From contig JBJLBP010000001.1 of the NCBI GenBank assembly GCA_045568075.1, positions 377,232 to 441,231 on the forward strand: a stretch of DNA of 64,000 nt, in the 5' to 3' direction. The number at the start of each line of letters is the position of its first letter. Position 1 is the first letter of the stretch. The notes beneath the pieces were generated by a model, which saw only the letters and a program-made list of their open reading frames with translations, was not told where the DNA came from and searched no databases. The stretch comes from Candidatus Thalassarchaeaceae archaeon. Lineage in GTDB: Archaea; Thermoplasmatota; Poseidoniia; Poseidoniales; Thalassarchaeaceae. Shown piece after piece: positions 15,207 to 45,777 of this stretch. Made by a program: the position numbers and the translations under genes.

Positions 15207-16028
15207 TCACTCTTTTCGCTCAAAGCGACTAGCACCGATTGCTGCCATCGCAAGTGCGCCCAGTCCGGCTGCGAGTCCGAATCCGGGTAGAGCATCATCG
15301 ACTGCTCCACCTATTCCACCATCATCGCCGCCATTTCCCGGTCCTACATCTGAGGCATTGATTACAGGGAAGTTTGCTTCTACTGAGTAATTATCCTCGT
15401 TATTTGAGTAGAACATAGTGAATTCTCCAGTGCAATCGAAAATCAAACATTCAATGCCACTAATACCCGGTGCAGAGTACTCAATTCGCACTACTGGTTC
15501 TTCTCCACTCTTGTTCCAACGATACATTGTTTCATTGACTGGAATATTCCATTGTATGGTAAAGTCCTCGTAATTATTTACAGTCTCAACAGATTTGACA
15601 AATTGAGAAATATCCATGGTTCCTCTAGACAATGTGATGGTCAAATCCTTGCATTCAGATGTATCAGTGCAATCAGCAGAATATATTCTGAATGACATTT
15701 CTACTGTGATTGTTCCATTTTCATTGATGTACATATCTTCCTTGAAGGTCTCACCAGATTGGATACGACAAGAAATGTCAACCTCAACCTGTGTTCCTTG
15801 AGAGAATTCCTTCATGCCATAGCCCTCTGATGCCGACCCCGCCGAGTCATTGACATCGAAGTGAGTCCAGCACTGATCCAATTGACTGGTTCCCCAGAAA
15901 TGCATGTGTGGGTTTTCCACCGAGGGCTGCTTCGGATCATCCGCTTGGGCGCTGGCTGGTGCAGCGATAGTTCCGCATGCTAGAATGAGCACGAGGCCAA
16001 GAGCCTGAATCCTGCGACTACCCTGCAT
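15207..16028 (-). CDS. Secreted protein with a PGF-CTERM archaeosortase sorting signal; lower GC than its surroundings.
   Basis: N-terminal signal peptide. C-terminal Gly/Asp-rich linker, then PGFGLAAGLGALAMAAIG and basic RFERKE, matching the PGF-CTERM tripartite architecture. Confidence 0.6.
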   Translation of the reverse strand: MQGSRRIQALGLVLILACGTIAAPASAQADDPKQPSVENPHMHFWGTSQLDQCWTHFDVNDSAGSASEGYGMKEFSQGTQVEVDISCRIQSGETFKEDMYINENGTITVEMSFRIYSADCTDTSECKDLTITLSRGTMDISQFVKSVETVNNYEDFTIQWNIPVNETMYRWNKSGEEPVVRIEYSAPGISGIECLIFDCTGEFTMFYSNNEDNYSVEANFPVINASDVGPGNGGDDGGIGGAVDDALPGFGLAAGLGALAMAAIGASRFERKE

Positions 16029-16112: not shown

Positions 16113-17258
16113 TCAGTCGAAGCGTTGTAGATTGCCGCCTTCACGGTGTTTTCCGTGACGTGCGATGTTGAGAGCGTCGCCGAGCATATCAGCACTCATC
16201 ATCTCTCTATCGAGTCTTTCAGAGGCGACGCCAGTAATGATCGACATTACCTTGATTGTATCTCCAAATGCTGGGTCTTGACGCGCGCCGAAGATGACGT
16301 TAGCATCGGGTGATAGGCGCGCAGTCATCAGGTCACAGACCTGATTTGCTTGTTCAAGAGTCATGTAAGGGCCACCAGTTACGTGGATGAGTGCACCCGT
16401 CGCCCCGTCTATTTCGATATCGAGAAGTGGATGGTTGAGAGATTCGTGGACTACTTCTTCTGGCCCTTGGTCGCTCTCTCCGTACAACATCATGGTGACT
16501 CCACCTCCCTTCATGATCGCCCGCACATCGGCGAAATCGAGGTTGATTAGACTTGGAAGGGTGATTGTTTCGACGATGCCTTTGACAATTTCAGCAATGA
16601 GCTGATCCATGATTGAAAAGGCCTCGTCGAGAGGCAGATTTGGCACATAGTGGAGAAGTCGATTATTATCGAGGACGAGGACTGCATCTGCTGCTTTTCG
16701 CAGCAGGTCAAGGCCCTCGAGAGCGCGCTGCATGCGCATACGGCGCTCGACGGAGAATGGAGTTGTGACAATCGCTACGACGAGCGCCCCAGAGCGCTTT
16801 GCCTCTTCAGCGACTATTGGCGCGATACCAGTACCGGTCCCACCGCCCAATCCGGCGGTGACGAATACGAGGTCAGCCCCCGAGACGATCCTAGTGATGA
16901 CATCGCGTCCGGCCTCCGCACAGCGGCGGCCAGTGACTGGGTCGCCACCCGCACCTAATCCGCGAGTAATGTGACGACCAACCAGCAGTTTCTGCTGCGC
17001 ACGCGTGTGGTCGAGGTGCTGCTTATCGGTGTTGATTGCGACTGTGATAGCGCCCTCAACTCCAATGTGCGTGATACGATTCATCGTGTTATTGCCCGAG
17101 CCGCCGCAACCACATACGAGAATGCGCGGATCGGGTGGTCCAAAGGCCTCGAGTTCACGATCTGTTAGAGCGGTTGGAATCCTTCCAGTAGCAGTACTTG
17201 CAGAACTTCCGCTCAACCCTGATGACGAACCGTCCCCCATCCCGTGTCCTCCGTGCAT
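16113..17258 (-). CDS. ftsZ: FtsZ-type tubulin-like GTPase.
   Basis: GGSGNNTMNRI (G-box), AINTDKQHL, GLGAGGDPVTG, the tubulin signature GGGTGTG, and the T7-loop region. Confidence 0.8.
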   Translation of the reverse strand: MHGGHGMGDGSSSGLSGSSASTATGRIPTALTDRELEAFGPPDPRILVCGCGGSGNNTMNRITHIGVEGAITVAINTDKQHLDHTRAQQKLLVGRHITRGLGAGGDPVTGRRCAEAGRDVITRIVSGADLVFVTAGLGGGTGTGIAPIVAEEAKRSGALVVAIVTTPFSVERRMRMQRALEGLDLLRKAADAVLVLDNNRLLHYVPNLPLDEAFSIMDQLIAEIVKGIVETITLPSLINLDFADVRAIMKGGGVTMMLYGESDQGPEEVVHESLNHPLLDIEIDGATGALIHVTGGPYMTLEQANQVCDLMTARLSPDANVIFGARQDPAFGDTIKVMSIITGVASERLDREMMSADMLGDALNIARHGKHREGGNLQRFD

Positions 17259-17416: not shown

Positions 17417-17520
17417 CCGCGCTTAGCTCAGTTGGCTAGAGCACCTGACTGTAGACTGGAAACACTTGGTTGTAGGCAGCCATCAGGGGGTCCCCGGTTC
17501 AAGTCCGGGAGCGCGGACCA
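17417..17520 (+). tRNA. tRNA-Tyr (anticodon GTA) with a 27-nt intron at the canonical 37/38 position and a genomically encoded CCA.
   Basis: Manual fold: acceptor CCGCGCT/AGCGCGG (7 bp), D-stem GCTC/GAGC, anticodon stem CCTGA/TCAGG with an intervening 34 nt (CT-GTA-G plus a 27-nt insert plus A), 5-nt variable loop, T-arm CCCGG-TTCAAGT-CCGGG, discriminator A, CCA. Confidence 0.75.
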
Positions 17521-17604
17521 AAGTATTCCCAGTTACTTGGTCAATTACGAACTAAGAACTGAAAAAACAAGAGACTATAACCCTAGCATTTTCGATAGGA
17601 AAGT

Positions 17605-19362
17605 ATGTCGCTTGCACCAACAGAATATGACTATGGAGATGAAAGTAATTACTCGTTTGCCGCCTCGGTGACTTGTTCTGATGAAGAAACAAGAAAAATG
17701 TTCGTCGAGGGTTATGGCCACATGCTAAATTACAACCACGAACAAGCAATTGCCTGTTTCTCTAAGTGCACTGAATTGGACCCAGATTGTGCTATGGCTT
17801 GGTGGGGAATTGCTTACTGCGTATCATCGAACTACAATTGGGAACCTGGACTTGGATCAGGCCATGACGCCATTCAACAGGCGCTGTCTGTAATGGGTCA
17901 CTGTAGCGATTTGGAGCAGGACCTGATCAAGGCACTCTCGACTCGTCACTCCGCTGAGGCTCGAGATGCAGCCGACCCGTCAGTTCTGAACATGGGCAAT
18001 AGTCCTGAATTGAACGTCGCATTCGCAGAAGCCATGGCTCCATTGCACGAAAAATACGCAGGTAATTTGGATGTCACGGCAATATACGTTGAGGCATTGA
18101 TGAATCTAAAGTCGTGGCAGCTTTGGGACAAAAACCCGTCAACTGGAGAAATCACCCCTGCCGATGACAACACATTACTTCTCGTCAAGATAATGGAAGA
18201 CGCATTCCAAGGCAGTGATGAGGCGAAGTCCCATACAGCACTATGTCACCTGTATTGTCACGCACTGGAACTATCCCCATTCCCGGAGAAGGCCCTTCCT
18301 GCGGCCGATATTTTGCGAACTCGTATGCCAGGTTTGGGGCATCTAGTCCACATGCCCTCTCACATCGACGCATGGGTTGGACAGTGGAAGGAAGCGATTG
18401 ATTGCAACATTGCTGCAGTCAAGGCTGATGATCGCTACGTCGAAATTACAGGAAACGAGTCCCAATTTTACAAATTCTATCGCATGCACAATCACCACTT
18501 CATTGTCTGGTGCTCTATGTTTGATGGCCAATATCAAACCGCTCTCAAATACGCCCGTAAGGCTGTCGATACTCTCCCTGCTGGTGATGAGAATGGGGGC
18601 GTTCAGTTCATGTTAGCAGGAATAATCCCAATGGGAGCAATTTTCTTGGAATCCTACGTTACCATGCCTTGGCACGTCATGATTCGATTTGGAAAGTGGG
18701 ATGAAATTCTGGCAGAACAGATGTACACCGATGGGGAAGTATTCCCTGCCACAATCGCCACCCAGCACTATGCTCGAGGCGTAGCTTTCGCTTCCAAAGG
18801 AATGGTACCAGAAGCAGAAGCCGAACAAGAATTGTTCAAGGCGGCACTGGAAAATCCAGCTCTTGCTGGACGAATGATGCATAACAATTTCATGTATCAG
18901 GGACCTTCAGAAGGCCCCTCAATACTGAATGTCAATGATGCAATTCTCGAAGGTGAAATAGAGTACAGAAGGCAATTCCTCGCTAAGAAAAACGGAGAAG
19001 ATTTCGATTTCACCGCGGCATTCAATGAACTTCGCCGAGGCGTGGACCTGTCATTGAACCTGGCTTACAATGAACCTTGGGGACAAATGCAACCAGTTCG
19101 CCACATTCTAGGTGCTCTTCTTCTAGAACAAGGACATGTTGAGGAAGCGGAAGAGGTTTACAGGGCCGATATCGAATTGTGGAAGGACAACATGTGGGGG
19201 CTTCTAGGCCTCAAACTATGTCTAGAGGCTAAGGGAGATTCTGACGAGGAACTTGCAGAGGTTACTGCGTTGTTCAACGAACGAAGTTCTCGTGCAGACA
19301 TCGTACCGGCAAAGACATGTTTCTGTGCTCAAGATGCGTTAGAAGACAACTGCTGTAACTAA
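17605..19362 (+). CDS. TPR-like helical repeat protein (hypothetical, cytoplasmic).
   Basis: 585 aa with repeated helical-hairpin Ala/Trp/Tyr pattern, no signal peptide, CTATAA box about 27 nt upstream of the ATG (leaderless), lower GC. Confidence 0.5.
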   Translation: MSLAPTEYDYGDESNYSFAASVTCSDEETRKMFVEGYGHMLNYNHEQAIACFSKCTELDPDCAMAWWGIAYCVSSNYNWEPGLGSGHDAIQQALSVMGHCSDLEQDLIKALSTRHSAEARDAADPSVLNMGNSPELNVAFAEAMAPLHEKYAGNLDVTAIYVEALMNLKSWQLWDKNPSTGEITPADDNTLLLVKIMEDAFQGSDEAKSHTALCHLYCHALELSPFPEKALPAADILRTRMPGLGHLVHMPSHIDAWVGQWKEAIDCNIAAVKADDRYVEITGNESQFYKFYRMHNHHFIVWCSMFDGQYQTALKYARKAVDTLPAGDENGGVQFMLAGIIPMGAIFLESYVTMPWHVMIRFGKWDEILAEQMYTDGEVFPATIATQHYARGVAFASKGMVPEAEAEQELFKAALENPALAGRMMHNNFMYQGPSEGPSILNVNDAILEGEIEYRRQFLAKKNGEDFDFTAAFNELRRGVDLSLNLAYNEPWGQMQPVRHILGALLLEQGHVEEAEEVYRADIELWKDNMWGLLGLKLCLEAKGDSDEELAEVTALFNERSSRADIVPAKTCFCAQDALEDNCCN

Positions 19363-19400
19363 TCAGAAACAGGAACTGCTCAATGAATGTCGGACTTTGT

Positions 19401-19425
19401 TTCAAGTCCGGGAGCGCGTTGACCA
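19401..19425 (+). repeat. Direct repeat of the tRNA-Tyr 3' end (TTCAAGTCCGGGAGCGCG, then TT and GACCA).
   Basis: Identical to 17498-17515 (T-loop/T-stem/acceptor 3' half); the following gacca matches 17516-17520 after a 2-nt insertion. Confidence 0.7.
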
Positions 19426-19494
19426 ATATCCTCTACTCATTAGAGTAGGCTCATAAAGGGGAGTCAGGTCGGCGGGATGCTTGGAGGGTCATAT

Positions 19495-20082
19495 ATGGGA
19501 GTCATGAAGCACCTTGGATCGGTTTGGAAGCAGCCGAAGGAGAACATTCCTCCTGCATACCGCCGTAACCGTATGGCAGGATGGCGCCGTGAGCCTGTAT
19601 TCCAGCGCGTCGATCGTCCAACTCGCCTCGATGCAGCCCGCCGCCTCGGCTACAAGTCGAAGCAAGGCATTACCGTAGTCCGCACGCGCGTACGACGCGG
19701 AGGACTCCGCAAGGGTAAGATCCACATGAAGCGCAAGCCGTCTAAGGCTGGTATCAAGAAAATCACCATGGCGAAGTCCATCCAGCGCATGGCTGAGGAG
19801 AGAACCAACAAGCGCTACCCTAACCTCGAAGTTCTCAACTCCTACTGGGTTGGCGAGGATGGCAAGAACAAGTTCTACGAAGTCATCATGATCGATCCAC
19901 ACCACCCAGCAATCAAGTCTGACAAGCAACTCGGCTGGATTGCTGAGGGCAATAGCCACCGCGGCCGCGCTGAGCGCGGAAAGACCAGCGCTGGTAAGCG
20001 CGGACGCGGTCTCTTCAACAAGGGTAAGGGTGCTGAGAAACTCCGCCCTTCCTTGAAGGCTAACAAGAACCTAGGAAAATAA
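19495..20082 (+). CDS. rpl15e: 50S ribosomal protein L15e.
   Basis: Conserved L15e N-terminus (MKHLGSVWKQP..) and the basic body RRLGYKSKQGITVVRTRVRRGG; CATAAAG TATA-like at 19452-19459. The ORF opens at 19477. Confidence 0.85.
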   Translation: MGVMKHLGSVWKQPKENIPPAYRRNRMAGWRREPVFQRVDRPTRLDAARRLGYKSKQGITVVRTRVRRGGLRKGKIHMKRKPSKAGIKKITMAKSIQRMAEERTNKRYPNLEVLNSYWVGEDGKNKFYEVIMIDPHHPAIKSDKQLGWIAEGNSHRGRAERGKTSAGKRGRGLFNKGKGAEKLRPSLKANKNLGK

Positions 20083-23163: not shown

Positions 23164-26100
23164 ATGGAACACGGTTCAGTGCGCTTAATCAGCAAAGCGC
23201 CGCGAGCCCGAATTTCACTACCAATTCTGATTGTAGCACTATTTCTTCTTCCAACTCTCGCCCCTTTCGCTGCCGTCAGTGGAGAGGCGAGAATCGAATC
23301 TGAGGACTTCGCAATTCTCAATGAGCTCAGCGAAGTCCTCGACCAACGCGAGCAGGTGGTCAGCAGCGATACTGTGAGCAAACTTGCTGGACCTTTACTC
23401 GATCAAGTTCGGGTCGGTGTACAGGAGACTTCAGTCGCCGATCCACTCCATGATATCGACGAGGCTCTCGACGAGGTATCAATGGTCGAAACCGCTGCAC
23501 CACAAGTCATTCATCCCGAACCTTACATCATTCTGACTGACGAAAATAGCCGCCCTCCTGGCGAAGTCAGAACCATTTGGTCGACTCTTTTCAATCTCAC
23601 AGATTACGTCATTTGGACACGATATGTAGACGATGAGGGTAATGTCGTCGAGCAATCTGAGACCATAACCTTCCTCACATCTCTCCTATCTCTTTTCGAC
23701 TCTGAGACCGAATTTTTGCTTCATCAGGTCGACATCGACCAGGATGGTGATGACGACATTCAGGTTGGTCTCAGCATCGAGATCAGTGACCCCGAACTCG
23801 ATGGAACCACACTTTCAGTCGCGCCTCAACTCGATTACAAGATCAGTGTGCTGCCCTCAAGCATGACTGATTCCGATTGGGAAAATCTAGAAACTCTAGA
23901 AGTGAGTCTTCTCAAAGCATTCGCGTATTCCGATGGAATCCTTACCGAGGGTGAATCATACGTTTGGGTTATTGATTCAAAATTCACTCATACACCTTAC
24001 GATTTCACCCTCGGAGTTGGTCTCGAACGATTCTACTTCGATCTCTCAGAAGCGGGGGCCGATTTCCTCCTATCGATTTTCAATGCGCTATCCTTCGGCG
24101 TGTTCAACGGTGGTGATGAATCTGGAATTACAATCGCTTCAATCGCCGCTCCATACCAGATATCAATAGACAATTCCGGCCAGACCGAATGTCCAGATCG
24201 CTACTCGCCGATTGAACTCACAACTCTTCCATCCAGTCAAATCTCCTGTGGAGTCACAGCAGGCTTCGGTTACGTCCACTATTCTCCTCCAAATATCGAA
24301 GATGAACGAGATGTCTGGGAGGTGGCCTACATTGAAGCCGCAATTCACCCTAATCGTCTCTCCACCACCCTCCCTGAACAGCTTGATCTCACAATCCGAA
24401 CTGATAGCACGATGGCCGACGGCACGGGCAGTGCTGGTGAAAATGGCCTGACAACCGTCGAGTACTGGGCCGATGAGCGCGCAGACCTCCACATACACTT
24501 CCACGAGAACCGCTCAGAGGTTCCACCCGAGAATGCCGATGGAACTTATGGTAACTCAACCGACTCCATCGGCTGGCTGCGCGGAATGCCTGCAGGCAGC
24601 CTCACCACAGAGGAGATCGATCGCACTTTCACCATGCTCGGTTCAAAGTCCGAGCCTCAACTACCTGGTGGCCAACCGAATCAACTCGGCCTCATCATCG
24701 GTGTCAAGAATTTCACCCGCGATACATCGCAGAACGTCGACGACCCCTCTCTCCCAGTCAATCCAGCATACCCGCCAAAGACTCTCGTTCTGGTAAGGTC
24801 AGTCCAATCGCTTGAGGAGGTGGATTATCATTCTTGGATGAAACGTGGTGGCGCGGCCACCGACCATCGGCGGATCGAAATTACTGCTCAAGACTTACCG
24901 ACCGCCGTCGTGCTCTTTGGCTCATTTGAGTTAGGTGGGACTGAAGAGGCAGACACAAGTCTCGATTCGGCACAAAATCTTGATTTCATGTCGAGAATCT
25001 TCGATGTTGTCCTGATCAACATAGTCGACCTCTTCCTCGATATCGGCACTATTCTGAACGACATTCCATCTGCCACAGTCGACGTCATCAGCGGTGGAGT
25101 CGGCGGTTCGGGTGGCCTAACAGGACAGACTCTTCACCTATTGATGAATGATCATTGGAGAGCCGATCGACAGGCTAGGTCAATCTCAGAAATCGGCCTG
25201 CAGATCGGTTCAAGCTCGCATCCTACGATGCCTGGCGATCATCTGATCCTCGCAAAAGACAGACAGTTGGAGACAGTTCAAGGGCGTCAGGGTCCGGTGG
25301 TGCCGATGGTGGTAGTAGCTGCGAGTTTACGTTTCAGTGGTCTGAGCCAGTTCACTCTTATCGATGATCTCGAGTCGGAATCCCAACAGGTTTCACTCCT
25401 GACTTCGTCGGAAAAACAGTTCTCATTCCTTTACATCGATCACAAACCGAATGATCTCAGCGGCGCAGCCCATCAAGGCGTCCGAATATCCGATATTCCG
25501 GACAATCTCTCCGCCGAACTCACACCCCAACTCGCAACATACCAAGCTAGTTCCTCTATCGATAGTATCAGTTACACTGGTATTGATGGTGACCAACGGC
25601 AGGCGACTCACGTTCTCGATTTGCCTGCCGAGTTTGAGATTGAATTTGGCGATGTGACTACTTGGAGCGCTTCATCGCCGATTTCTTCCATTCATGCCCA
25701 ACTCACAGATTCTACAAATCCTGTGACGATGGGCGGCGATCACTTCCTTTTCCATCACGAGCCGTCCGATGGTAGCTCGACTATCTCAACTCGTATTTCG
25801 GGATTGCAAGAGGTTGGCTGGCGAGCACCAGCCGAACCAGGTGCCAGTGGAGCAATTGGTCGTGGCACCGCTTTCATGACCGCTGCCGGCGACCGCACGA
25901 TGAGCATCAATGTCGATCATGCGCCGACTCAGGATGAGGGGGGCTTGTCGGCGCTCGTTCTCATCGATCCACTTCCATCCACTATCTCGGTCGATATTCC
26001 AACGGGAGCCGATGCAGGAAACAGCCTCGTCTTCCCCGAATTGAACACGACTCAAGGTGTCGCTGGCGTGGCTTTCTTCCTTGGCGGTTTTGCCGATCTC

Positions 26101-27531
26101 GGTCGCTCTGTGAACACGGTCCTCGCTGGTGTGACAAGTGAAATTTCGACAGGATCCGATGGTGGCAATGGTTCATTCTCTTACGGTCTTCAGCTCGATG
26201 CAGACAGTAATTTTGACCTGATTTTCGAAGCCAGCCATGGAAATGGCACTGCGGATGCCCCACCTTGGGTACACGGAATCGCGCTGAACGCAGCACCTTC
26301 AGGAATATCGGATGGCTTCCATATCCGTGGATGGATTCCAGATTTACCTCCGATAATCGATATCTCGGTCAGTCGAACCCCGACTTCAACCGGTGAAGAA
26401 TGGGCAATCGCCATGGGTTTGGATGGATGGTTGCCCGCGCGCAGTGAATTCATGCTGAACTCGCGCGGTATCAACGGTCAGGACCTGATGATGACACTGC
26501 AAGGCTTGACCGTTGGTGAATCAACTGCACTAGGACTCGATTCGGAATTCTTGATCCGAGAAACAAGTGGTGGGATTACCGAAGTAACAACAACGACTCA
26601 CTTCGTGATGTCGAATAGACTCGATTGGATTCATGCTCTTCTAATCAATCGAGAGGCCGGCGCACGGACGGAGATGCTGATCAATGACATTCCCGAATCC
26701 ATCGATTTGCGCGCCAGTCTAGGCACGTCCATATCGCTGGATATGACCGTGCCAGATGCATATCGTCGAGCCGGTCCTGCCGTGGACTCGATGATGATGC
26801 AACAGATGCAATGGATGGACGGTTCTTGGTGGCCGGCTACGATTTTCCTGACCGACGTCCCTGACGCGATTAATCTCACGACAGAGCCAGATCTCGATTT
26901 TGACATCACCAAAAGTCTCGCATTCCAAGGGACTCCTGTACTCGACTTCTCCGCCTCGGCTGATGGAATGTCACTCTACATCGAAGCCAACGGCCGCGCT
27001 ATCAACAGTCGAGGCGAAATCATCCTCCTCGCCGAGGGCATGACCGATCGAATGGTCATCAAACCGACTGAGGATTATGGTCTCGCGATTCGCAGTGGAG
27101 GCGATGGAGTCGATCGAATCTATTTGCGCGCCTCCAATATGCCGACAACTCCTCCTGTTGTCCTCGAAGAAATGGAGGCGCTTGGCGAGAATTTGCGAAG
27201 CGCGACGATTCATGTCATTGAGATAGTCGGCCCATACAGCGTCATTGAGATAGAAGATGTACAAGGTGGACGAATCGTTGCATCCGCGCGCGCGACGGCT
27301 GAAGTCGAAGCCATTGGTATGACCTTTGATTTGCGTGGCGTTCTACTCGACGCTCAGACCACCGGAGGAGTACCGACTGGAACCAGTCTTGGGGTAAACG
27401 GTCTCGCTTCCGATCTCTCGCTGCTGAATCTAATCCCTGGATTTGAAGGCTCCACCCATCACATAATTGTCCCGGAGCCTCTCTCATCCGGTGTGCTAAC
27501 ATTCTGCGCTACATTCCTGGGAGGTGACTAA
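23164..27531 (+). CDS. Giant (1455 aa) secreted or N-terminally anchored surface protein B with no recognisable domain.
   Basis: N-terminal signal/anchor LPILIVALFLLPTLAPFAAVSG; an uninterrupted 4.4-kb ORF with coding-like codon usage; Asp/Thr/Ser-rich beta-type composition; TAA stop at 27529-27531. Confidence 0.6.
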   Translation: MEHGSVRLISKAPRARISLPILIVALFLLPTLAPFAAVSGEARIESEDFAILNELSEVLDQREQVVSSDTVSKLAGPLLDQVRVGVQETSVADPLHDIDEALDEVSMVETAAPQVIHPEPYIILTDENSRPPGEVRTIWSTLFNLTDYVIWTRYVDDEGNVVEQSETITFLTSLLSLFDSETEFLLHQVDIDQDGDDDIQVGLSIEISDPELDGTTLSVAPQLDYKISVLPSSMTDSDWENLETLEVSLLKAFAYSDGILTEGESYVWVIDSKFTHTPYDFTLGVGLERFYFDLSEAGADFLLSIFNALSFGVFNGGDESGITIASIAAPYQISIDNSGQTECPDRYSPIELTTLPSSQISCGVTAGFGYVHYSPPNIEDERDVWEVAYIEAAIHPNRLSTTLPEQLDLTIRTDSTMADGTGSAGENGLTTVEYWADERADLHIHFHENRSEVPPENADGTYGNSTDSIGWLRGMPAGSLTTEEIDRTFTMLGSKSEPQLPGGQPNQLGLIIGVKNFTRDTSQNVDDPSLPVNPAYPPKTLVLVRSVQSLEEVDYHSWMKRGGAATDHRRIEITAQDLPTAVVLFGSFELGGTEEADTSLDSAQNLDFMSRIFDVVLINIVDLFLDIGTILNDIPSATVDVISGGVGGSGGLTGQTLHLLMNDHWRADRQARSISEIGLQIGSSSHPTMPGDHLILAKDRQLETVQGRQGPVVPMVVVAASLRFSGLSQFTLIDDLESESQQVSLLTSSEKQFSFLYIDHKPNDLSGAAHQGVRISDIPDNLSAELTPQLATYQASSSIDSISYTGIDGDQRQATHVLDLPAEFEIEFGDVTTWSASSPISSIHAQLTDSTNPVTMGGDHFLFHHEPSDGSSTISTRISGLQEVGWRAPAEPGASGAIGRGTAFMTAAGDRTMSINVDHAPTQDEGGLSALVLIDPLPSTISVDIPTGADAGNSLVFPELNTTQGVAGVAFFLGGFADLGRSVNTVLAGVTSEISTGSDGGNGSFSYGLQLDADSNFDLIFEASHGNGTADAPPWVHGIALNAAPSGISDGFHIRGWIPDLPPIIDISVSRTPTSTGEEWAIAMGLDGWLPARSEFMLNSRGINGQDLMMTLQGLTVGESTALGLDSEFLIRETSGGITEVTTTTHFVMSNRLDWIHALLINREAGARTEMLINDIPESIDLRASLGTSISLDMTVPDAYRRAGPAVDSMMMQQMQWMDGSWWPATIFLTDVPDAINLTTEPDLDFDITKSLAFQGTPVLDFSASADGMSLYIEANGRAINSRGEIILLAEGMTDRMVIKPTEDYGLAIRSGGDGVDRIYLRASNMPTTPPVVLEEMEALGENLRSATIHVIEIVGPYSVIEIEDVQGGRIVASARATAEVEAIGMTFDLRGVLLDAQTTGGVPTGTSLGVNGLASDLSLLNLIPGFEGSTHHIIVPEPLSSGVLTFCATFLGGD

Positions 27532-28144: not shown

Positions 28145-31100
28145 ATGCTGAAAGGCGACTCAATGGGGCAGCGACTCATGACCAAACGCATCGCGGTTGC
28201 GATACTCGGGATTTTCCTCCTATCTCTCGCTCCGGCTGGTGGGGTTCATGTTGAGTCAACTGGGGATTCGGAGGAAATACTGGACCCAGTTGTGAATCGT
28301 ATTGGGATTGCACCTGATCCAGATTCAATCCAAGATCTTGGTTCACCACGAGTCCTTGAGGGTCTCGAGAGGACTCGTGAGAATACGGCCGACTCTACAA
28401 TCGGCGTTTACACCGAACTCGGCCTCATTCCATCGGTTCACTTGCCACGAGCTCTAGCTGAGCCTCGAAGCGACTTGGCGATGGTTATCGTCGATGGAGA
28501 TGTTGGCATCTGGGATGCTCGTATTGCTGTCGAGGAAGCGGCTGATGTTGAGATTCGCTCGACAATTCCTCCATCGGGATTCCTCGTGCAGGGTGATGAA
28601 AAGCAGATTTCATTGCTCGCTGAGGAATCGATAGTAGTCGCAGTCCACTCTGTCTCGTCCGGCCTGCTCGCCCATCCGCTTCTGCGGCTGGTCGAAGAAG
28701 GCCCGATGATGGTCGAGTTGCTCGGCTGGAAGGATGACGAATTACAACGCCACGCCGAGCCAGGCCTCGGTCTGGAAGATTCGTTAGAAGCAGTTGCAGA
28801 ACTTTGGTTGACCGATTCATGGAGCCCAGAAGAGGGGCGTGTATGGGGCGTCGTTGATATCTCCGATATCGGCAGTGTCCTACAGCACCCCTCAGTCGCT
28901 TGGGTTGCGCCGCTACCGGTGCTAGAAACCAAAAATGACAATGCCCGAACCCACATGGGAATCGATACGGTCGACTCCTTCTTCGTCACTGATCTAGATG
29001 GCTCCGGCCAAACTGTTGCCGTCGGCGATTCGGGCATTGACCATGATCATGGGGATTTCAACAACCGAATCGTCGGTCGAACTTCTGTCACCCCTGGAGA
29101 TTCCTCGACCGCTGATCCATCGGATGGTCACGGAACCCACGTGGCTTGCACAGTGCTGGGTTCCGGAATGCGCAGCAGCGGGACTTACAACGGCGTCGCT
29201 CCCGGTGCTAGCCTCTACTTCCAAGCAATGGAGGATGATGACACAGGTGCTCTCTACAGTTACGGCATTAACAGCATGTTGAATTCTGCTTACAATGCTG
29301 GTGCCCGCCTGCACACCAATAGCTGGGGAGCGGGCAGTGGACACGGATCATATTCGACCCAGTCCGAGGATGCGGACGACCGCACCTCGACTTGGGATCA
29401 ATACTGGAGTCACGAGGGTATGACTGTGCTCTTCGCGGCTGGCAACGAGCGTAATGACGGAGTTTCACCACCTGGTACTGCGAAGAATGTCATCACAGTT
29501 GGTGGCCACAAGAATCGCTACAGTGGCTCTCCTGACGAGATGTATTACTGGAGTAGCCGCGGTCCAACTGACGATGGCCGTCTCAAGCCCGACCTTGTAG
29601 GACCGGGAGACGGTGTTCGATCTTGCCTCGCTCAAGAGGCTCAGGATGCAGATTCAGGATGGTCAAACAACTGGTACATCGAGTACAGCGGCACTTCCAT
29701 GTCGACTCCAGCCGCTGCCGGAGCCGCCGCCCTCGTGCGCGAGTATCTGATGGAAGTGGCAAATCGACCGGCTCCACAGGGTGCTTTGGTCAAGGCACTC
29801 CTGATTCTTGGCGCCGAGGACATGGGAAATCGTAACATTCCGAATAATGACGAGGGCTGGGGAAGAGTCAATCTGATTAATTCACTCATCCCCGATAGCG
29901 ACGAAGGTATCTTCGTCGATGATCGTAGTAGAATTCGAAGTGGCGAGACCCAAGAATACACCTTCGAAATCACTCGCGCTGGTGAGCCTCTGAAGGTGGT
30001 CCTCGCTTGGTCGGACTATCCTGGTTCATCATCTTCAAGCAATCAATTACGTAACGATTTGAATCTTGAAGTGATTCATCCGAGCGGTGGAACTACCTAC
30101 AAAGGAAATGTCTTCAATTCAGGGCGTTCAATCGCTGGTGGCTCCTTCGATTCAAAGAATAATGTCGAGGTTGTTCTAGTCGATAATGCCGCTGTCGGGA
30201 CATGGACTGTCCGTGTCAAGGACGATTATCACGGCGGCAGCCGCACCTGGCAGCCATTCGCTCTCGCGGTTCGTGGAGTGAACGTCAACGATCTCTCACC
30301 AGACCCAACTTTTGCTCCTGATGTATCGGTTACTCCAACCATTCCTCAGATTGGAGACTCGGTTCAGATTGGAATCACTCTCGAGAATCTAGGAGCAGGA
30401 TCTGTCTCAGATCTCGAAGTAATGGCGCGTGCAGATGGGTCTCACATCTCGACCCAAACCATCTCTATGACTCCGGGTGAATCGGTCGGAATGACTTGGA
30501 ATTGGACACCGACAAGCGAGGGACTGATAGATCTGTCATTCCACATTGATCCAAACGAACTTGTCGACGAATCCAACGAAGGAAATAACCTACTCACACA
30601 CACAGTAATCATCAGTGCACCCGGAGTTCGAGTGACTTCGGATGAACCATTCATGACTCTTGGGGAGGCTGACGACAGCTCAACCACTTGGTCACTTACT
30701 CTGACGAATACCGCCCTCTTCGAGACCAATGCAACAATCGAAGCCTCCTCTCCTATTCGACAGAGCGATGGCCTCGAATTCGATTGGTTCTACTCTTTCA
30801 CATCGAATACGTTCAACCTGCTGGAAGCGGAATCTGTTGAGATTGGATTCACTCTGATCCATCCAGCTCCTCCGCAGCCTGGAACCTATGTCATGACGAT
30901 TACAGGAACTGATGTCGAGAATGAGATTGAATCGATGCTCGACATCTACTTCGAGGTGCCCATTCTTGCAGCCGCCGATGTTGAAATCACATCAGGCCAA
31001 GTCCAAGTCAGTCCAATTTCTAAGACTCAAATTCAGGTCTTCGTAACCAATGTGGGCAATGGCCCTCAGACCTACGATGTCGAACTCAGCTCTCCTGCGG

Positions 31101-32665
31101 GCTGGCACCTCGGCCTCGACGTGCTCGGAGCCTTCGCAGGTTCCTCACACGGCTCGACTGGAACTCTCTTCGTCGGCGAGCGCCGGACAATTGACATCAC
31201 GGTGAATCCACCCGGCGCGATGATCCCAGCCGGCTCGGTATTCGACGCCGGCTTGACGATCCATTCTCGCGTCAGTAGTGATTCTTGGTCGGTACCGATT
31301 CCTCTCGAGGTCATCATCATCGACCAACTTTCGACCACACCAATCAGTGATGGCATTGAGCACGAAGTCTCGCCCGATTCGACTCTCGTGCTCGATATCG
31401 ATTTCCTCAACAACGGTAATCGAGACCTGACGATGACCCCGTATTCGCGAGGTATCCCATCGGGTTGGACTGTAGTAGGAGGTCTTGACACACTCTTCGC
31501 ACCTACCGGCTCAACGACTAGTTGGTCGGTGACTCTGCAAGGCAATGGCAGGGCGACCAGCGGCGACTTCAAGCTCCGCTTCGCCACTGATGACGGCTTC
31601 GCTATCGACTGGAACAGAACCATCGATGTCCTCTCAGCCGCGATACCCGCTCTGACTTTCCACCAAGTCGTTCTTGGCGACGGCACATCTGCTGACACAC
31701 CACTAGGAGTCGGAGCCCATCCCGTCGGAACAGGCTTCGATTTGGCTTGGGAGGTCGAGAATGAAGGTACCTCAACTTGGAAGCCGACCACGAGTATCAT
31801 CATCCCTGAAGGTGATTGGTTGGGGACTTGCCCAACTACACCATCCTCTCTCGCTCCCGGCGCGAGTAGCATCATTTGGTGCACCGTGACGATTCCACTA
31901 TCGGCTGAGGCCGGGAGTGAACCATACGTCACTCTCAGGATGGAAGGCGAAGGTATCGAGATCGAGAATTCGATCTCGCTACGCGTAGACTCTGTCTCCG
32001 CGGTGACTTGGAATCTGCGAACCCAAGCCCAGGCACACGAGGGCTACCCTATCCAGATGACTGTGGATATTCAGAACGTTGGTAATGCGCAAGTGAATCA
32101 TCGCTTAGATGTCACAGCACCATCTGGCTGGAACGTCTTCATCAATGACGAGGTCCTAGTCATTCTGAGTCCCGGCGAATCACGTTCGATCGTCATTGAA
32201 TTCACCCCCAATGCTGGCAGCGATGGAATCATCGAGATGTCACTTCGCTATGGCGAGGACATTCAGGGGTCCACCTTCTCCTTCGATGTCGATGTGATGC
32301 CCGGTAAGGGCGGTGATAGCAGCCTTGGTTCAACACTCATTCCAATCTTCTTCATCCTCATTATCGCAATCATCGGTGGGGCCGGATTCTATGTCTTCAA
32401 GCAGCGCGGAGGCAAACTCGATTCCATCATCTCAAAAGAGGCTGTGAGCAAGATTTCCGAGTCGCTGAAACTTAGTGAAGAAGAGAGCGGATCTGGTATC
32501 GAATGTTGGGTTTGTAGTCGTGATATATTCGAGGGTAAAGCTCACGCTTGTGGCAATTGTGGAGCCCGCTATCACCAAGCCGGACAGATTCGAGGATGCG
32601 ATATCCTCTCCGTTGGCCGCTGTTTGCACTGTAACGCAGATTCGAGCGAGCTCGTCGAGGCTTGA
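28145..32665 (+). CDS. Membrane-anchored S8 subtilisin-like serine protease D (1506 aa) with many CARDB-like beta-sandwich repeats, a TM helix and a cytoplasmic C-terminal double zinc ribbon.
   Basis: Catalytic triad contexts VAVGDSGIDHDHGDF (Asp), DGHGTHVACTV (His) and GTSMSTPAAAGAAALV (Ser). At least six repeats of the (V/I)xNxGN..xxxL type. TM LIPIFFILIIAIIGGAGFYVF. Tail CWVCS-x11-CGNC...C-x7-CLHC. A signal peptide (ILGIFLLSLAPAGG) after alternative starts at 28163 or 28178. Confidence 0.8.
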   Translation: MLKGDSMGQRLMTKRIAVAILGIFLLSLAPAGGVHVESTGDSEEILDPVVNRIGIAPDPDSIQDLGSPRVLEGLERTRENTADSTIGVYTELGLIPSVHLPRALAEPRSDLAMVIVDGDVGIWDARIAVEEAADVEIRSTIPPSGFLVQGDEKQISLLAEESIVVAVHSVSSGLLAHPLLRLVEEGPMMVELLGWKDDELQRHAEPGLGLEDSLEAVAELWLTDSWSPEEGRVWGVVDISDIGSVLQHPSVAWVAPLPVLETKNDNARTHMGIDTVDSFFVTDLDGSGQTVAVGDSGIDHDHGDFNNRIVGRTSVTPGDSSTADPSDGHGTHVACTVLGSGMRSSGTYNGVAPGASLYFQAMEDDDTGALYSYGINSMLNSAYNAGARLHTNSWGAGSGHGSYSTQSEDADDRTSTWDQYWSHEGMTVLFAAGNERNDGVSPPGTAKNVITVGGHKNRYSGSPDEMYYWSSRGPTDDGRLKPDLVGPGDGVRSCLAQEAQDADSGWSNNWYIEYSGTSMSTPAAAGAAALVREYLMEVANRPAPQGALVKALLILGAEDMGNRNIPNNDEGWGRVNLINSLIPDSDEGIFVDDRSRIRSGETQEYTFEITRAGEPLKVVLAWSDYPGSSSSSNQLRNDLNLEVIHPSGGTTYKGNVFNSGRSIAGGSFDSKNNVEVVLVDNAAVGTWTVRVKDDYHGGSRTWQPFALAVRGVNVNDLSPDPTFAPDVSVTPTIPQIGDSVQIGITLENLGAGSVSDLEVMARADGSHISTQTISMTPGESVGMTWNWTPTSEGLIDLSFHIDPNELVDESNEGNNLLTHTVIISAPGVRVTSDEPFMTLGEADDSSTTWSLTLTNTALFETNATIEASSPIRQSDGLEFDWFYSFTSNTFNLLEAESVEIGFTLIHPAPPQPGTYVMTITGTDVENEIESMLDIYFEVPILAAADVEITSGQVQVSPISKTQIQVFVTNVGNGPQTYDVELSSPAGWHLGLDVLGAFAGSSHGSTGTLFVGERRTIDITVNPPGAMIPAGSVFDAGLTIHSRVSSDSWSVPIPLEVIIIDQLSTTPISDGIEHEVSPDSTLVLDIDFLNNGNRDLTMTPYSRGIPSGWTVVGGLDTLFAPTGSTTSWSVTLQGNGRATSGDFKLRFATDDGFAIDWNRTIDVLSAAIPALTFHQVVLGDGTSADTPLGVGAHPVGTGFDLAWEVENEGTSTWKPTTSIIIPEGDWLGTCPTTPSSLAPGASSIIWCTVTIPLSAEAGSEPYVTLRMEGEGIEIENSISLRVDSVSAVTWNLRTQAQAHEGYPIQMTVDIQNVGNAQVNHRLDVTAPSGWNVFINDEVLVILSPGESRSIVIEFTPNAGSDGIIEMSLRYGEDIQGSTFSFDVDVMPGKGGDSSLGSTLIPIFFILIIAIIGGAGFYVFKQRGGKLDSIISKEAVSKISESLKLSEEESGSGIECWVCSRDIFEGKAHACGNCGARYHQAGQIRGCDILSVGRCLHCNADSSELVEA

Positions 32666-44167: not shown

Positions 44168-45777
44168 TTACATCCGACCCGCTCACATTCATCACACTGG
44201 CACCGATAGCCTTCGGTCTCACACTTCTCATCCTGCCTCATATTGCTCCCGCGAGCATGGCGGATTACATTCGAAAGATTGCTCGCCCACTATCCATGGG
44301 CCTCGCTTTGGCAATCTTCGCCATCACTTCGGCCCTCTTCCTCGGCCAGATTGGAAACATCGACTGGCTCGACATCATGCAGGGAGATTACGTCCTGCAG
44401 AACGAGGCAGTCGTCCTTCTCGATGAGATAGGAGTCCGTTGGGTCGTCGGTGTCGACGCTCTCTCATTCCCTATGGTTTGGCTGACAGCGATGCTCATCC
44501 CAGTCTCGATGTTGGTTGAGTGGGACGCTGAGAAGGGACACATATTCCATCCACTGATTCTGATTATGGAGGGCGCACTGTTGGGTGTGTTCGTCGTTCT
44601 CGATCTTTTCGTCTTCTACGTCTTCTGGGAACTTACACTCATCCCGATGTTCTTCCTCATCCTAGTCTGGGGTGGAGCTGACCGCCGCTACGCCTCGATG
44701 AAGTTCTTCATCTACACATTTACGGCGAGCGTCTTGATGCTCATCGGAATTCTCGTGATGTACTTCAACACTGGAGACGCGAGCCTTGCTGGCTCGCTGA
44801 CAGGTCATCACTTCGATCTTGTATCGATGACCGCGCAGGCCGCTGGTGGCGGTTTGATTGCTGGCGAAGGCCTGCGACACTTCGTTTGGATCCTTTTGCT
44901 CATTGGATTCGCTACCAAGATGCCGAGCGTCCCAGTCCACACTTGGCTGCCAGACGCTCACGTTCAGGCGCCTACGGCTGGCTCGATGTTGCTGGCTGGC
45001 GTGATGCTGAAGATGGGCGCCTACGGATTCCTGAGAGTAGCAGTTACCATCTTCCCCGAATCGACGGTGGTCTTCATTCCGCTACTCATCGTCCTCGGAA
45101 TGGTCAGCCTCGTCTATGGGGCGATTGTTTGCATGGGGCAGACTAACCTCAAGCGCATGGTTGCTTACTCATCCGTATCTCACATGGGATTGATCTTCCT
45201 TGGAATCGCGACCATGCAGCCTCTTGGTATCGCAGGAGCTCTCTTCATGATGTTCGCACATGGAATCATCAGCCCACTCCTCTTCGCGGTCGCGGGTTCA
45301 TTCAAGCATCATTACCACACGCTTGAAATCGGCTCGATGCGCGGAATCGCGCATCATTCACCATGGCTTGCCGGCCACATGATGCTCGGTTGGATGGCGA
45401 GTTTGGGTCTACCTCTGCTCGCTGGTTTCGTGGCCGAGGTCGCGGTTTTGATAGCCTTCTGGATGACCTTCGGATGGCTAGTCATCCTACCTGCATTAAC
45501 CCTCATCATCACCGCGGTTTACTATCTCACAAGTATGCAGAAAACAATCTTCGAGGGCGGCGACCCACACGTTGGAATCCTTCCCGAGAGCCTGCACGGA
45601 GAGGAGCCGCGTGACATCACTTGGCACGAGAATGCTGGTATGTTCATACTCGCTGCATTCACCGTTCTGTTCGGAATTCTACCATTCATCTTCTGGGATA
45701 TGATGTCTGATTGGTCGACCGAATTCATGCTAGAAACTCTGGTCGATGCGATGAATAGCAAGGGGGTGAAACCCTGA
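44164..45777 (+). CDS. nuoM: NADH-quinone oxidoreductase subunit M.
   Basis: WLPDAHVQAPTAGSMLLAGVMLKMGAYG motif; the start overlaps the nuoL stop. Confidence 0.9.
   Translation: MITSDPLTFITLAPIAFGLTLLILPHIAPASMADYIRKIARPLSMGLALAIFAITSALFLGQIGNIDWLDIMQGDYVLQNEAVVLLDEIGVRWVVGVDALSFPMVWLTAMLIPVSMLVEWDAEKGHIFHPLILIMEGALLGVFVVLDLFVFYVFWELTLIPMFFLILVWGGADRRYASMKFFIYTFTASVLMLIGILVMYFNTGDASLAGSLTGHHFDLVSMTAQAAGGGLIAGEGLRHFVWILLLIGFATKMPSVPVHTWLPDAHVQAPTAGSMLLAGVMLKMGAYGFLRVAVTIFPESTVVFIPLLIVLGMVSLVYGAIVCMGQTNLKRMVAYSSVSHMGLIFLGIATMQPLGIAGALFMMFAHGIISPLLFAVAGSFKHHYHTLEIGSMRGIAHHSPWLAGHMMLGWMASLGLPLLAGFVAEVAVLIAFWMTFGWLVILPALTLIITAVYYLTSMQKTIFEGGDPHVGILPESLHGEEPRDITWHENAGMFILAAFTVLFGILPFIFWDMMSDWSTEFMLETLVDAMNSKGVKP

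Follow-up and report, generated by a model that had tools for sequence, protein, structure and literature searches.

Positions 17521 to 19425 of the window (the whole 64-kb stretch of DNA analyzed here) very probably represent an integrase-less module that lies between an attL and an attR site and entered site-specifically at tRNA-Tyr, an integration hot spot of MGIIb (Thalassarchaeaceae-like) archaea. Its host belongs to Marine Group II (Poseidoniales, MGIIb), an uncultured group that ranks with the most abundant archaea of the plankton and whose mobile elements have hardly been mapped. In related genomes, small mobile elements frequently land at the tRNA-Tyr gene. The module of the window is a case of CIME-like gene capture, a process of a known kind that is new for MGII.

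The integration target, formerly attB and now attL, is a tRNA-Tyr(GUA) gene with an encoded CCA end and a 27-nt intron (approximately positions 17455 to 17482), located at positions 17417 to 17520 of the plus strand. In agreement with the preliminary description, which listed an intron-bearing tRNA-Tyr here, this is the sole tRNA gene found in the window by Rfam (RF00005, positions 17417 to 17517; 56.4 bits, E = 1.7e-9), and ARAGORN with introns allowed (option -i) reports tRNA-Tyr(gta) at 17417 to 17520 with a 27-nt intron at position 39. The default mode of ARAGORN misses this gene, so that Rfam or the -i option is needed. A "tRNA-Arg" with a 979-nt intron reported by ARAGORN -i at positions 46368 to 47438 is an artifact that sits within a coding ORF. 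The conserved chromosomal flanks are formed by ftsZ on the left (positions 16113 to 17258, minus strand; Pfam Tubulin and FtsZ_C matches), whose synteny with tRNA-Tyr is kept in 80 Poseidoniales loci, and by rpl15e on the right (positions 19477 to 20082, plus strand; Pfam Ribosomal_L15e, E = 2.9e-73). The tRNA-Tyr gene itself is 97 to 100% identical across related genomes. In one related locus (L021; such loci are given L numbers), the tRNA looks split only because the assembly has a stretch of Ns there.

The 18-mer TTCAAGTCCGGGAGCGCG from the 3' end of the tRNA gene occurs exactly twice in the window, at positions 17498 to 17515 and 19401 to 19418, both on the plus strand. None of 100 dinucleotide-preserving shuffles contains a second match, even with 2 mismatches allowed. 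TT and then GACCAA directly follow the second copy, which corresponds to the 2-nt indel and GACCA described earlier; the repeat is real but longer than first described. The attL core (positions 17495 to 17520, plus strand; blastn-short, exact 18-mer) reads CGG TTCAAGTCCGGGAGCGCG GACCA. This 26-nt block is common to the tRNA and the attP and attR sites of the elements and spans the 3' half of the T-arm, the 3' strand of the acceptor stem, and CCA; in blastn-short comparisons, the identity blocks run from position 78 or 79 to position 104 of the tRNA in all attR copies. The distal copy, at positions 19391 to 19425 of the plus strand, is a decayed attR (repeat and consensus match) that consists of the element half-site CGGACTT, a spacer, the exact 18-nt repeat, two inserted nucleotides, and GACCA (CGGACTT TGTTTC AAGTCCGG GAGCGCG TT GACCA). 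Apart from the 2-nt insertion, it matches 31 of the 33 positions of an att consensus derived from related loci, the spacer TGTTTC having 2 substitutions relative to the consensus CGGTTC. Its local score against this consensus is 52, versus a mean of 14 and a maximum of 24 for shuffled sequences.

About 13 codons similar to an integrase tail adjoin the attR of the window. The element-arm remnant, found by antisense translation and arm comparison at positions 19373 to 19390 of the minus strand, weakly resembles the 3' tail of an integrase gene and is truncated near the stop codon of the TPR gene. Its translation, ALPDLKQSPTFIEQFLFL, when set against ALPDLNRSPVPDEAFVLL from the tail of the L024 integrase, has 3 of 9 residues in common beyond the core, and the nucleotide similarity of the arms is 12 of 20; the likeness is clear for the core and the CGGACT arm and weak beyond them. 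Thus, the distal repeat, with its element half-site and putative integrase-tail remnant, is a true attR. A tblastn search detected no integrase or other element gene across the 64-kb window, consistent with the earlier remark that no integrase remains, and the 84 nt adjoining attL contain no integrase remnant.

Other relatives carry modules of 0.8 to 10 kb at tRNA-Tyr that are bounded by the same 26- to 27-nt repeat, with a cargo that ranges from restriction-modification methyltransferases to phosphatase-like genes and the TPR gene. Sites of the attR/attP type were found on 75 metagenome contigs. A tyrosine integrase is still encoded by the elements in L024, L137, L099, and L082; in the 8-kb element of L024, a PF00589 integrase gene (E = 1.8e-11) lies directly next to the tRNA, and the attR is perfect. 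Circularizing the ends of 4 complete elements yields a 477-codon integrase ORF that runs through attP (466 aa from the first Met), and 55 of 68 attR arms encode its conserved tail (...LLRELSRQCLEDIRKGRTATTRQLLSMLAGVEE and stop). The integrase matches PF00589 alone (E = 3.8e-10 to 1.8e-11), at residues 195 to 349, and does not match PF16795. The attP, a perfect 8-bp inverted repeat (CCGGACTT/AAGTCCGG) flanking the 6-nt spacer CGGTTC, is placed inside the 3' tail of this ORF, with the att core at codons ~428 to 437. This is ~70 codons past the catalytic Tyr region, and integration removes only a C-terminal tail of ~50 aa. A minimal att site of the elements would read CCGGACTTCGGTTCAAGTCCGG(GAGCGCGGACCA).

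Three modules without an integrase (L091, L135, and L151) have fragments of the integrase C terminus beside attL; integrase tails are cut at differing points in L088/L095/L123, L127, and L136; and in L146, an att-adjacent deletion joins the core to codon ~560 of the TPR gene. Among the loci examined, no single att-bounded unit contains both the integrase and the TPR gene. IMG/VR has 0 matches for the att pattern, no relatives of the integrase or of a conserved 265-aa element protein (o265), and no free viral or plasmid form tied to the site; no circular form was seen.

The earlier proposal that the two repeats are the signature of integration into a tRNA gene is supported by empty sites, by integrase-bearing elements at the same core, by the element arm on the distal repeat, and by the phylogenetic discordance of the TPR gene with its flanks. 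Empty sites, with tRNA-Tyr followed by rpl15e after a gap of 76 to 470 nt, are present in at least 12 related MGIIb species; one such genome, L004, is among the closest relatives of the window. The DNA to the right of the distal repeat (GACCAATATCC...GTAGGCTCATAAAGGGGAG) matches the post-tRNA DNA in the empty sites L014, L005, L004, and L028. Positions 19426 to 19476 (plus strand), which align with the empty sites, comprise the ancestral tRNA-downstream flank and the rpl15e promoter region (...GTAGGCTCATAAAGGGGAG...). In clade B, the lineage that groups with the window in the TPR tree discussed below, the flank adjoining the TPR gene is of the GCTACTAATC... type, unlike the GACCAATATCC... of the window. 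At the junction, an empty-site allele in the window population would read tRNA...GGAGCGCGGACCAATATCCTCTACTC.

The TPR gene directly follows tRNA-Tyr in 6 of the species-level genomes, as it does in many metagenome contigs, and in most of these cases there is no distal repeat. Its occurrence is patchy even where two hosts share 94% ftsZ nucleotide identity: L001 lacks the gene and L002 has it. In L002, L003, L114/L115, L012, and L016, no decayed attR after the TPR gene scores above shuffled controls; an apparent att match in L012/L016 was discounted, as it falls within a convergent peptidase gene. In L010 and L150, the TPR gene and attR go together, with a decayed attR a few nucleotides past the TPR stop codon (15 of 19 positions; shuffle p about 0.003). 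The GC3 of the TPR gene tracks that of the host in L012/L016 and L002/L003. The lack of a distal att site and the host-like GC3 in several lineages therefore indicate that the TPR gene has also been passed on vertically here over long periods. Accordingly, a TPR gene conserved at this position without repeats, which the preliminary description had named as evidence against integration, is partly seen (L002, L003, L012, and L016), yet the distribution is patchy and L010/L150 keep a decayed attR.

The DNA between the repeats contains a single ORF, an intact gene at positions 17605 to 19362 of the plus strand that encodes a 585-aa TPR-repeat protein (Pfam TPR_1, TPR_2, TPR_8, and TPR_14) with a Cys-rich C terminus (CFC...CC). 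Its dN/dS ratio versus L010 is about 0.03, indicating strong purifying selection. The AF2 model is an all-alpha solenoid (pLDDT 67.6). As to function, searches of Pfam, NCBIfam, and PDB sequences and a Foldseek comparison with PDB return generic TPR solenoid matches alone (TM ≤ 0.35). The left end of the module, positions 17521 to 17604 of the plus strand, is the AT-rich upstream region of this gene (84 nt at 34.5% GC), so the junction with the tRNA is indeed AT-rich. The gene may have the leaderless promoter proposed for it in the preliminary description; a TATA-like ACTATAA is located at positions 17574 to 17580, 31 nt 5' of the ATG. In L148, a nearly identical strain that has another element inserted upstream, the same 85-nt flank comes after an att copy. 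The lower GC content ascribed to the gene is a mild deviation, with a GC3 of 46.9 versus 55.9 ± 6.8 over 44 window ORFs (z = -1.3, rank 4 of 44), and composition is weak evidence that the gene is foreign.

In neighbor-joining trees of FtsZ, L15e, and the two concatenated, the window groups with clade A (L001 to L005) with 100% bootstrap support; this host tree is based on the two flanking genes only. In a TPR tree with outgroups, the window groups with clade B (L010, L012, and L016), again at 100%, and never with the clade A TPR proteins. The window TPR shares 5 to 7 derived residues with clade B and 1 or 2 with clade A. The proportion of synonymous differences (pS) between the window and L010 is 0.61 for the TPR gene versus 0.81 for ftsZ and 0.83 for rpl15e. 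The discordance with the flanks and the lower synonymous divergence from clade B therefore indicate that the TPR gene was acquired horizontally. Divergence from the donor is still large (dS of about 1.25), which makes this an old event with blurred details. Sliding windows and informative sites reveal no breakpoint along the gene, and its upstream region resembles both clade types without being clearly clade B-like. The TPR gene is not viral but a member of a conserved MGII chromosomal family, which in other MGII lineages occupies at least 3 ordinary, non-tRNA chromosomal contexts. Thus, the suggestion of a foreign cargo gene holds insofar as the gene is discordant with its flanks, whereas a viral or plasmid source does not: "foreign" here means another MGIIb lineage.

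A sister single-gene module, AP852, carries an 852-aa phosphatase-like gene and no integrase. In every lineage, its boundaries are the same (2,701 to 2,702 bp) and its att sites are perfect. The pS of AP852 among three lineages is 0.07 to 0.16, and that of their FtsZ and L15e genes is saturated (0.71 to 0.84). AP852 has thus moved recently between species without an integrase of its own, which suggests helper-dependent mobilization. A check of AP852 for a hidden recombinase revealed similarity to the alkaline phosphatase/NPP superfamily only. The circular junction of this module would read ...CATCCGATATCGGACTYCGGTTCAAGTCCGGGAGCGCGGACCAAAC.... Helper or other modules lie upstream of the TPR gene in L145, L116, L151, L148, and L010/L150; in L145, the array consists of an element with the integrase and o265, an att site, and the TPR gene. 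Accretion is thus directly observed, also on a contig from the species of the window, which carries an additional module of 2.3 kb.

At this site, the tyrosine integrase of small (6- to 10-kb) elements would recombine attP with the last 26 to 27 nt of tRNA-Tyr, with CGGTTC as the presumed strand-exchange region. Integration would rebuild the tRNA; downstream, it would leave an attR, a copy of the tRNA 3' end that comes after the element half-site and the integrase tail. We infer that the TPR gene, with its own upstream region, took this site-specific route into an empty clade A site from a clade B-like MGIIb donor. Most likely, at about even probability, the cassette was already a minimal att-to-att unit on arrival and rode with a helper element (accretion and cis-mobilization); the composite of helper and cassette would have been excised and integrated, and the helper would have left later via the internal att. 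The circular junction of the TPR module would read ...GAATGTCGGACTTTGTTTCAAGTCCGGGAGCGCGGACCAAAGTATTCCC. The module now is probably immobile, apparently locked because its attR has 2 spacer substitutions and the 2-nt insertion.

A possible but rather doubtful alternative, which differs from the favored model only in the route to the minimal module, is that a full-size integrase element with the TPR gene as cargo was integrated and that deletions left this gene alone between attL and attR. Such decay in place would be the classical archaeal "gene capture," which a review (PMC8371274, citing She et al. 2001) presents as established for archaeal integrases after integration, and many modules at the site are visibly decaying (integrase fragments, truncated tails, and the L146 deletion). 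However, the 84 nt beside attL hold no trace of an integrase, an intact element with both integrase and TPR genes was not found among the loci examined, and AP852, with the same architecture, demonstrably moves between species as a fixed 2.7-kb unit, which independent decay would not reproduce.

A tRNA-TPR-attR segment formed in the donor might have been copied through the conserved flanks by homologous recombination, with no integrase at work in the window's lineage, for which the near-identical tRNA-Tyr genes of different species offer a possible left crossover and which would also account for the discordance of the TPR gene with its flanks. This is improbable, since the DNA to the right of attR is of the clade A, empty-site type (GACCAATATCC...) and not of the clade B type (GCTACTAATC...); the right crossover would therefore fall inside the 18- to 27-nt core, which is too short for efficient recombination yet is the exact place where a site-specific recombinase acts. 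Quite improbable, too, is that the TPR gene is an ancestral core gene here and that the repeat was left by an unrelated integration and excision. Its presence 3' of tRNA-Tyr in 6 species-level genomes, mostly without a distal repeat, and its host-ameliorated GC3 in L012/L016 and L002/L003 would fit this view, but the TPR gene of the window is not of the clade A type, the L001 and L002 pair illustrates a patchy distribution, and other MGII lineages have the gene at three different non-tRNA loci. Moreover, integration into a tRNA gene puts attR downstream of the insert, and therefore the DNA between the tRNA and attR was inserted. Almost no weight can be given to the idea that the repeat matches by chance or belongs to a second tRNA or pseudo-tRNA gene, a reading for which nothing speaks beyond the sequence identity itself: the shuffles never reproduced the match, Rfam finds no tRNA at 19.4 kb, and the left context of the second copy is a conserved element arm unlike any tRNA sequence.

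The favored site-specific entry resembles gene capture by archaeal SSV-type (suicidal) integrases (She et al. 2001), as outlined in two reviews (PMC8371274 and PMC7253208). In both systems, integration is directed at the 3' part of a tRNA gene; the integrase ORF contains attP (in the loci related to the window), so that integration splits the gene and leaves a fragment beside attR; captured integrase-less genes are bracketed by direct repeats; and no accessory or directionality factor is evident. Unlike the SSV-type enzymes, the MGII integrase matches PF00589 alone, whereas PF16795 (Phage_integr_3) is the domain given in review for the suicidal integrase families, and the split spares the catalytic domain instead of separating Int(N) from a catalytic Int(C). 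Here the host is planktonic and mesophilic, in contrast to the mainly hyperthermophilic sources of the known families, and only a weak tail remnant survives in the window.

The module also resembles the CIMEs of streptococci, which are described, together with the tandem accretion of ICEs and IMEs, in PMC5704250 (citing Pavlovic 2004 and Bellanger 2011). Like a CIME, it keeps attL and attR at the 3' end of a tRNA gene and has no recombination or transfer genes; tandem arrays with incoming elements occur at the same att site (L145, L116, L151, L148, and L010/L150); and the AP852 sister module has spread between species without its own integrase. It differs in its archaeal host, in being reduced to a single gene, and in its helper, a small element in which no conjugation genes are seen and whose role in mobilization is deduced from sequence. 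Charybdis elements of Poseidoniales (bioRxiv 10.1101/2025.08.03.668216) are likewise small, encode an integrase, and are reported to integrate beside tRNA genes in Marine Group II. By their description, they are rich in methyltransferases as accessory genes, and methyltransferases are also found in the modules at tRNA-Tyr; however, the reported integrated clade is linked mainly to Poseidoniaceae (MGIIa), and the elements described here are from MGIIb. Similarity to integron cassettes is in outcome only: single-gene units bounded by recombination sites are stacked at a single chromosomal site, with the integrase encoded elsewhere. There is no attC-type folded site and no IntI/attI platform (no IntI-specific match in Pfam or NCBIfam), insertion is at a tRNA gene, and each module comes with an upstream region of its own and has tRNA-derived att copies as boundaries.

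Tentatively, the tRNA-Tyr locus might nevertheless be viewed as an integron-like landing pad, where an integrase family not described before, with attP in the coding region of a dispensable or regulatory C-terminal tail, excises, transfers, and reintegrates minimal integrase-less cassettes in cis or in trans. A cassette, such as TPR or AP852, would then comprise one gene, its own promoter, an arm of about 20 to 30 nt, and a ~27-nt core. If true, this would amount to a "semi-suicidal" version of the SSV paradigm among mesophilic archaea of the ocean, in which tail clipping upon integration could serve as a built-in directionality switch.

Taken as a whole, the locus is an integration system defined by sequence, with the 3' end of tRNA-Tyr as the target, an inverted-repeat core, an integrase family, and a range of cargo. 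Through this site, a host gene family can relocate and be exchanged between species. The att core and the integrase are parts for a future genetic tool in MGII archaea, and the attR signature can be used for mining flexible genes in MGII metagenomes. For the window itself, the outcome is less far-reaching: a captured gene that is old, fixed, and probably immobile. Seven further contigs from independent metagenomes are 99.8 to 99.95% identical to it from the tRNA to rpl15e and have an identical attR, and the module is therefore fixed in the population.

The source of the window is a Marine Group II (MGII) archaeon (Poseidoniales, Thalassarchaeaceae-like), whose FtsZ is 94 to 96% identical to proteins of MGIIb MAG contigs. 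Its tRNA-Tyr(gta), described preliminarily as intron bearing, is the only tRNA that Rfam recognizes in the whole window (17417-17517, 56.4 bits); ARAGORN did not detect it there in default mode and, with introns allowed, placed it at 17417-17520 with a 27-nt intron. The latter setting also yielded a "tRNA-Arg" with a 979-nt intron (46368-47438), which lies inside an ORF (45777-47450) and is almost certainly a false positive. The tRNA-Tyr is flanked by ftsZ on the left (16113-17258, minus strand) and rpl15e on the right (start at 19477). The 18-mer TTCAAGTCCGGGAGCGCG at its 3' end (17498-17515) recurs exactly at 19401-19418, with no further copy in the window; the reported duplication is correct and far above chance expectation (0 of 100 shuffles match). 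The sole ORF between the two copies encodes a 585-aa TPR-repeat protein (17605-19362). It is separated from the tRNA by 84 nt of DNA that is indeed AT rich (34.5% GC) and ends 38 nt before the second copy.

The reading of this repeat pair as an integration footprint is supported by empty sites in relatives, a matching right flank, and the recombinase-like layout of the att site. We collected 80 Poseidoniales loci via FtsZ (loci are designated by L numbers throughout) and located in them tRNA-Tyr, TPR, L15e, and repeats of the tRNA 3' end. The MGIIb gene order is ftsZ (leftward), tRNA-Tyr (rightward), a variable stretch, and rpl15e (rightward). At least 12 species-level MGIIb genomes (L004, L005, L008, L009, L011, L014, L019, L020, L022, L023, L028, and L033) have an empty site, with rpl15e 76 to 470 nt past the tRNA. 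The DNA to the right of the window's distal repeat, GACCAATATCCTC...GTAGGCTCATAAAGGGGAG, agrees with that to the right of the tRNA at empty sites, as in L014 (GACCAATATCACCTC...GCAGCCTCATAAAGGAG) and L004 (...GAGTAGGCTCATAAAGGGGAG). Among the occupied sites, L024 carries an insert of 8 kb and a second repeat copy that is perfect, and L006 and L010 carry a 2.7-kb insert, followed in L010 by the TPR gene. In L002, L003, L012, L016, and L071, TPR lies directly 3' of the tRNA, with no second repeat copy detectable. Its distribution is patchy, as it is absent from L001 and present in L002 despite 94% nucleotide identity of their ftsZ genes. Upstream of rpl15e, after the tRNA or TPR, L001, L002, L003, and L005 share a conserved antisense ORF of ~64 aa (MKTNWIKALTEMGMTRIRMDAICAYQEIE...) that is not found in the window; clade B genomes (L010, L012, and L016) have an unrelated antisense ORF of ~135 to 142 aa upstream of rpl15e.

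To the left of every second copy is a shared arm of non-tRNA sequence, CGGACTYYGG, and after it TTCAAGTCCGGGAGCGCGGACCA. The block identical to the tRNA begins at CGG and is 26 to 27 nt long; in arm and core, CGGTTC is flanked by a perfect inverted repeat (CCGGACTT/AAGTCCGG), which is the usual core layout of tyrosine recombinases. The window's distal copy, CGGACTT-TGTTTC-AAGTCCGG-GAGCGCG-TT-GACCA, matches at 31 of 33 positions with a 2-nt insertion (score of 52 versus a shuffle maximum of 24). Searching metagenome contigs for the arm together with the core yielded 75 loci, two of which (L086 and L101) are from the window's own strain. A decayed attR (CTTAGGTCCAAGTCAAGGA; 15/19, p about 0.003) lies a few nucleotides past the TPR stop in L010 and L150, so TPR and a distal att are also paired in the donor-type lineage.

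A tyrosine recombinase matching PF00589 (E value of 1.8e-11) is found directly beside the tRNA in L024 (L024:8404-9741, plus strand in locus orientation), with homologues at the equivalent position in L082, L099, L128, and L137. Joining the ends of the complete elements in L024, L137, L099, and L082, which mimics excision, creates in all four a 477-codon ORF antisense to the tRNA, with the att core at codons ~428 to 437 and its end some 40 codons inside the attR arm. A conserved, uninterrupted tail (...LLRELSRQCLEDIRKGRTATTRQLLSMLAGVEE, then stop) occupies the antisense frame in 55 of 68 metagenome attR arms. Thus, attP lies inside the integrase gene, and integration into tRNA-Tyr replaces the last ~50 residues with tRNA-antisense sequence. 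An attP within the integrase gene is a trait of the SSV-type "suicidal" integrases (PMC8371274, PMC7253208). However, the MGII integrase matches PF00589 only, without PF16795, and its split falls past the catalytic region (residues 195 to 349 by Pfam match), so that the exchange affects only the C-terminal tail. From these data, it appears to resemble SSV-type integrases in its working and fails the tests of membership in that family. The antisense translation of the window's attR arm (ALPDLKQSPTFIEQFLFL versus ALPDLNRSPVPDEAFVLL in L024) identifies it as a putative short, partly decayed remnant of the integrase tail, cut near the TPR stop. The first ~10 nt past that stop (TCAGAAACAG) look, by eye, like the TPR 3' flank in the distant lineage L159; if this resemblance holds, the module junction would be about 10 nt past the stop.

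The TPR gene of the window is intact and strongly constrained (dN/dS of about 0.03 versus L010). AF2 models it as an all-alpha solenoid (pLDDT 67.6, pTM 0.62) that matches generic TPR only, and marine metagenomes contain thousands of homologues. The gene had been proposed as candidate cargo of foreign origin. The family is not viral: orthologues with 83 to 86% identity in other MGII lineages (L156 to L161) occupy three differing, ordinary chromosomal contexts (TiaS/alpha-amylase, peptidase M14/SOD, and TrmB/ABC1) with no tRNA or att close by, and it is therefore host derived. The gene has relocated repeatedly during MGII evolution; at the tRNA-Tyr site it is found, patchily, within the window's genus-level group. 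Horizontal acquisition, on the other hand, is borne out by phylogeny. Neighbor-joining trees of FtsZ, L15e, and their concatenation place the window with clade A (L001 to L005) with 100% bootstrap support, whereas the TPR tree, rooted with more distant homologues, groups it with the clade B TPRs (100%) and never with those of clade A (L002, L003, and L114; 0%). Outgroup-polarized sites give 5 to 7 derived states in common with clade B and 1 or 2 with clade A, and a mosaic test found no breakpoint in the window TPR. Synonymous differences between the window and L010 are 0.61 for TPR, 0.81 for ftsZ, and 0.83 for rpl15e, the latter two being saturated. The lower GC content noted previously is mild (GC3 of 46.9 versus 55.9 +/- 6.8) and is a weak witness for foreignness.

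The window element is a captured integrase-less cassette, of a general kind that is known (archaeal gene capture, CIME-like). Modules at the tRNA-Tyr site measure 0.8 to 10 kb, many without an integrase and some in tandem arrays. One of them consists of a single gene for an 852-aa protein of the alkaline phosphatase/NPP superfamily (L006:7037-9595, minus strand; also in L010, L150, L152, L083, and L111). Its boundaries (2,701 to 2,702 bp) are identical and its att sites perfect in L006, L010/L150, and L152/L083, with synonymous differences of 0.07 to 0.16 across hosts in which ftsZ and rpl15e are saturated (0.71 to 0.84); therefore, this integrase-less att-to-att unit moved recently between species. 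Bacterial CIMEs and tandem accretion behave similarly (PMC5704250), the likeness being interspecies spread without an integrase of its own. The TPR gene is directly preceded by a module with an integrase and a 265-aa protein, the conserved neighbor of the integrase, in L145 and by helper or other modules in L116, L151, L148, and L010/L150; a contig of the window's own species is organized likewise. A composite of helper and cassette might have integrated at the tRNA, with the helper later excising via the internal att site; the residue would be tRNA-TPR-attR, the exact arrangement in the window.

We prefer this helper-cassette route, giving it about an even chance of being correct, over the in situ decay of a bigger TPR-carrying element, which we consider rather unlikely. 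Decay at the site is evidenced by the integrase 3' fragments adjoining attL in L091, L135, and L151, by integrase tails cut at differing points, and by the att at 2488-2515 of L146 (oriented), where the core is fused to about codon 560 of TPR, leaving its last ~25 codons (GGAC/ATAGTGCCCGCCAAGACATG...). This fusion is a deletion next to the att and may stem from an aberrant integrase event.

In the metagenome collection, 78 indexed blocks contain the exact TPR protein of the window, and the seven contigs compared, all from different samples, are 99.8 to 99.95% identical from the tRNA to rpl15e with an unchanged attR; it follows that the module has reached fixation in a widespread population. 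In its attR, the presumed overlap differs from CGGTTC by two substitutions (TGTTTC), and there is the 2-nt insertion as well. Since tyrosine recombinases require overlap identity, excision is probably blocked. The tRNA end is still a live target, as seen in L148 and in a contig of the window's own species from sample ERZ4132356; in the latter, ftsZ/tRNA and an identical TPR are separated by about 2.3 kb with three extra small ORFs (154, 156, and 174 aa), indicating a polymorphic additional insertion at the tRNA. The captured cassette is described here for MGII archaea, and with it the integrase family and the att site by which it can be explained; the more novel aspects, the predicted attP in a tail-coding region and the apparent trans- or cis-mobilization of single-gene cassettes, belong to related loci and not to the window itself.

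The cargo between att copies in L096, L136, L151, L154, L088, and L089 includes several DNA methyltransferase-like genes, among them a D12-class N6-adenine methyltransferase (PF02086) in L096, DPPY/DPPH-motif proteins in L136 and L151, and an HPPY-motif protein in L151, which suggests restriction-modification systems. An ABA4-like protein and a calcineurin-like phosphoesterase are further hot-spot cargo. In the window itself, a 273-aa ORF without a Pfam match (15207-16028, minus strand; GC, 46.2%; GC3, 42.0) occupies the hisS-ftsZ interval; in the population contig L163, gene calling splits its counterpart into ORFs of 136 and 149 aa, so it may be disrupted there. Downstream of an 865-aa PKD domain protein, the plus-strand ORFs at 23164-27531 (1,455 aa) and 28145-32665 (1,506 aa) probably encode secreted or surface proteins; in related contigs, the homologue of the 1,506-aa ORF is a subtilase (Peptidase_S8) with CARDB, according to precomputed Pfam matches. 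The lowest GC content in the window (39.1%; GC3, 33.0) belongs to a 184-aa ORF at 56507-57061 (plus strand), a stronger compositional outlier than TPR.
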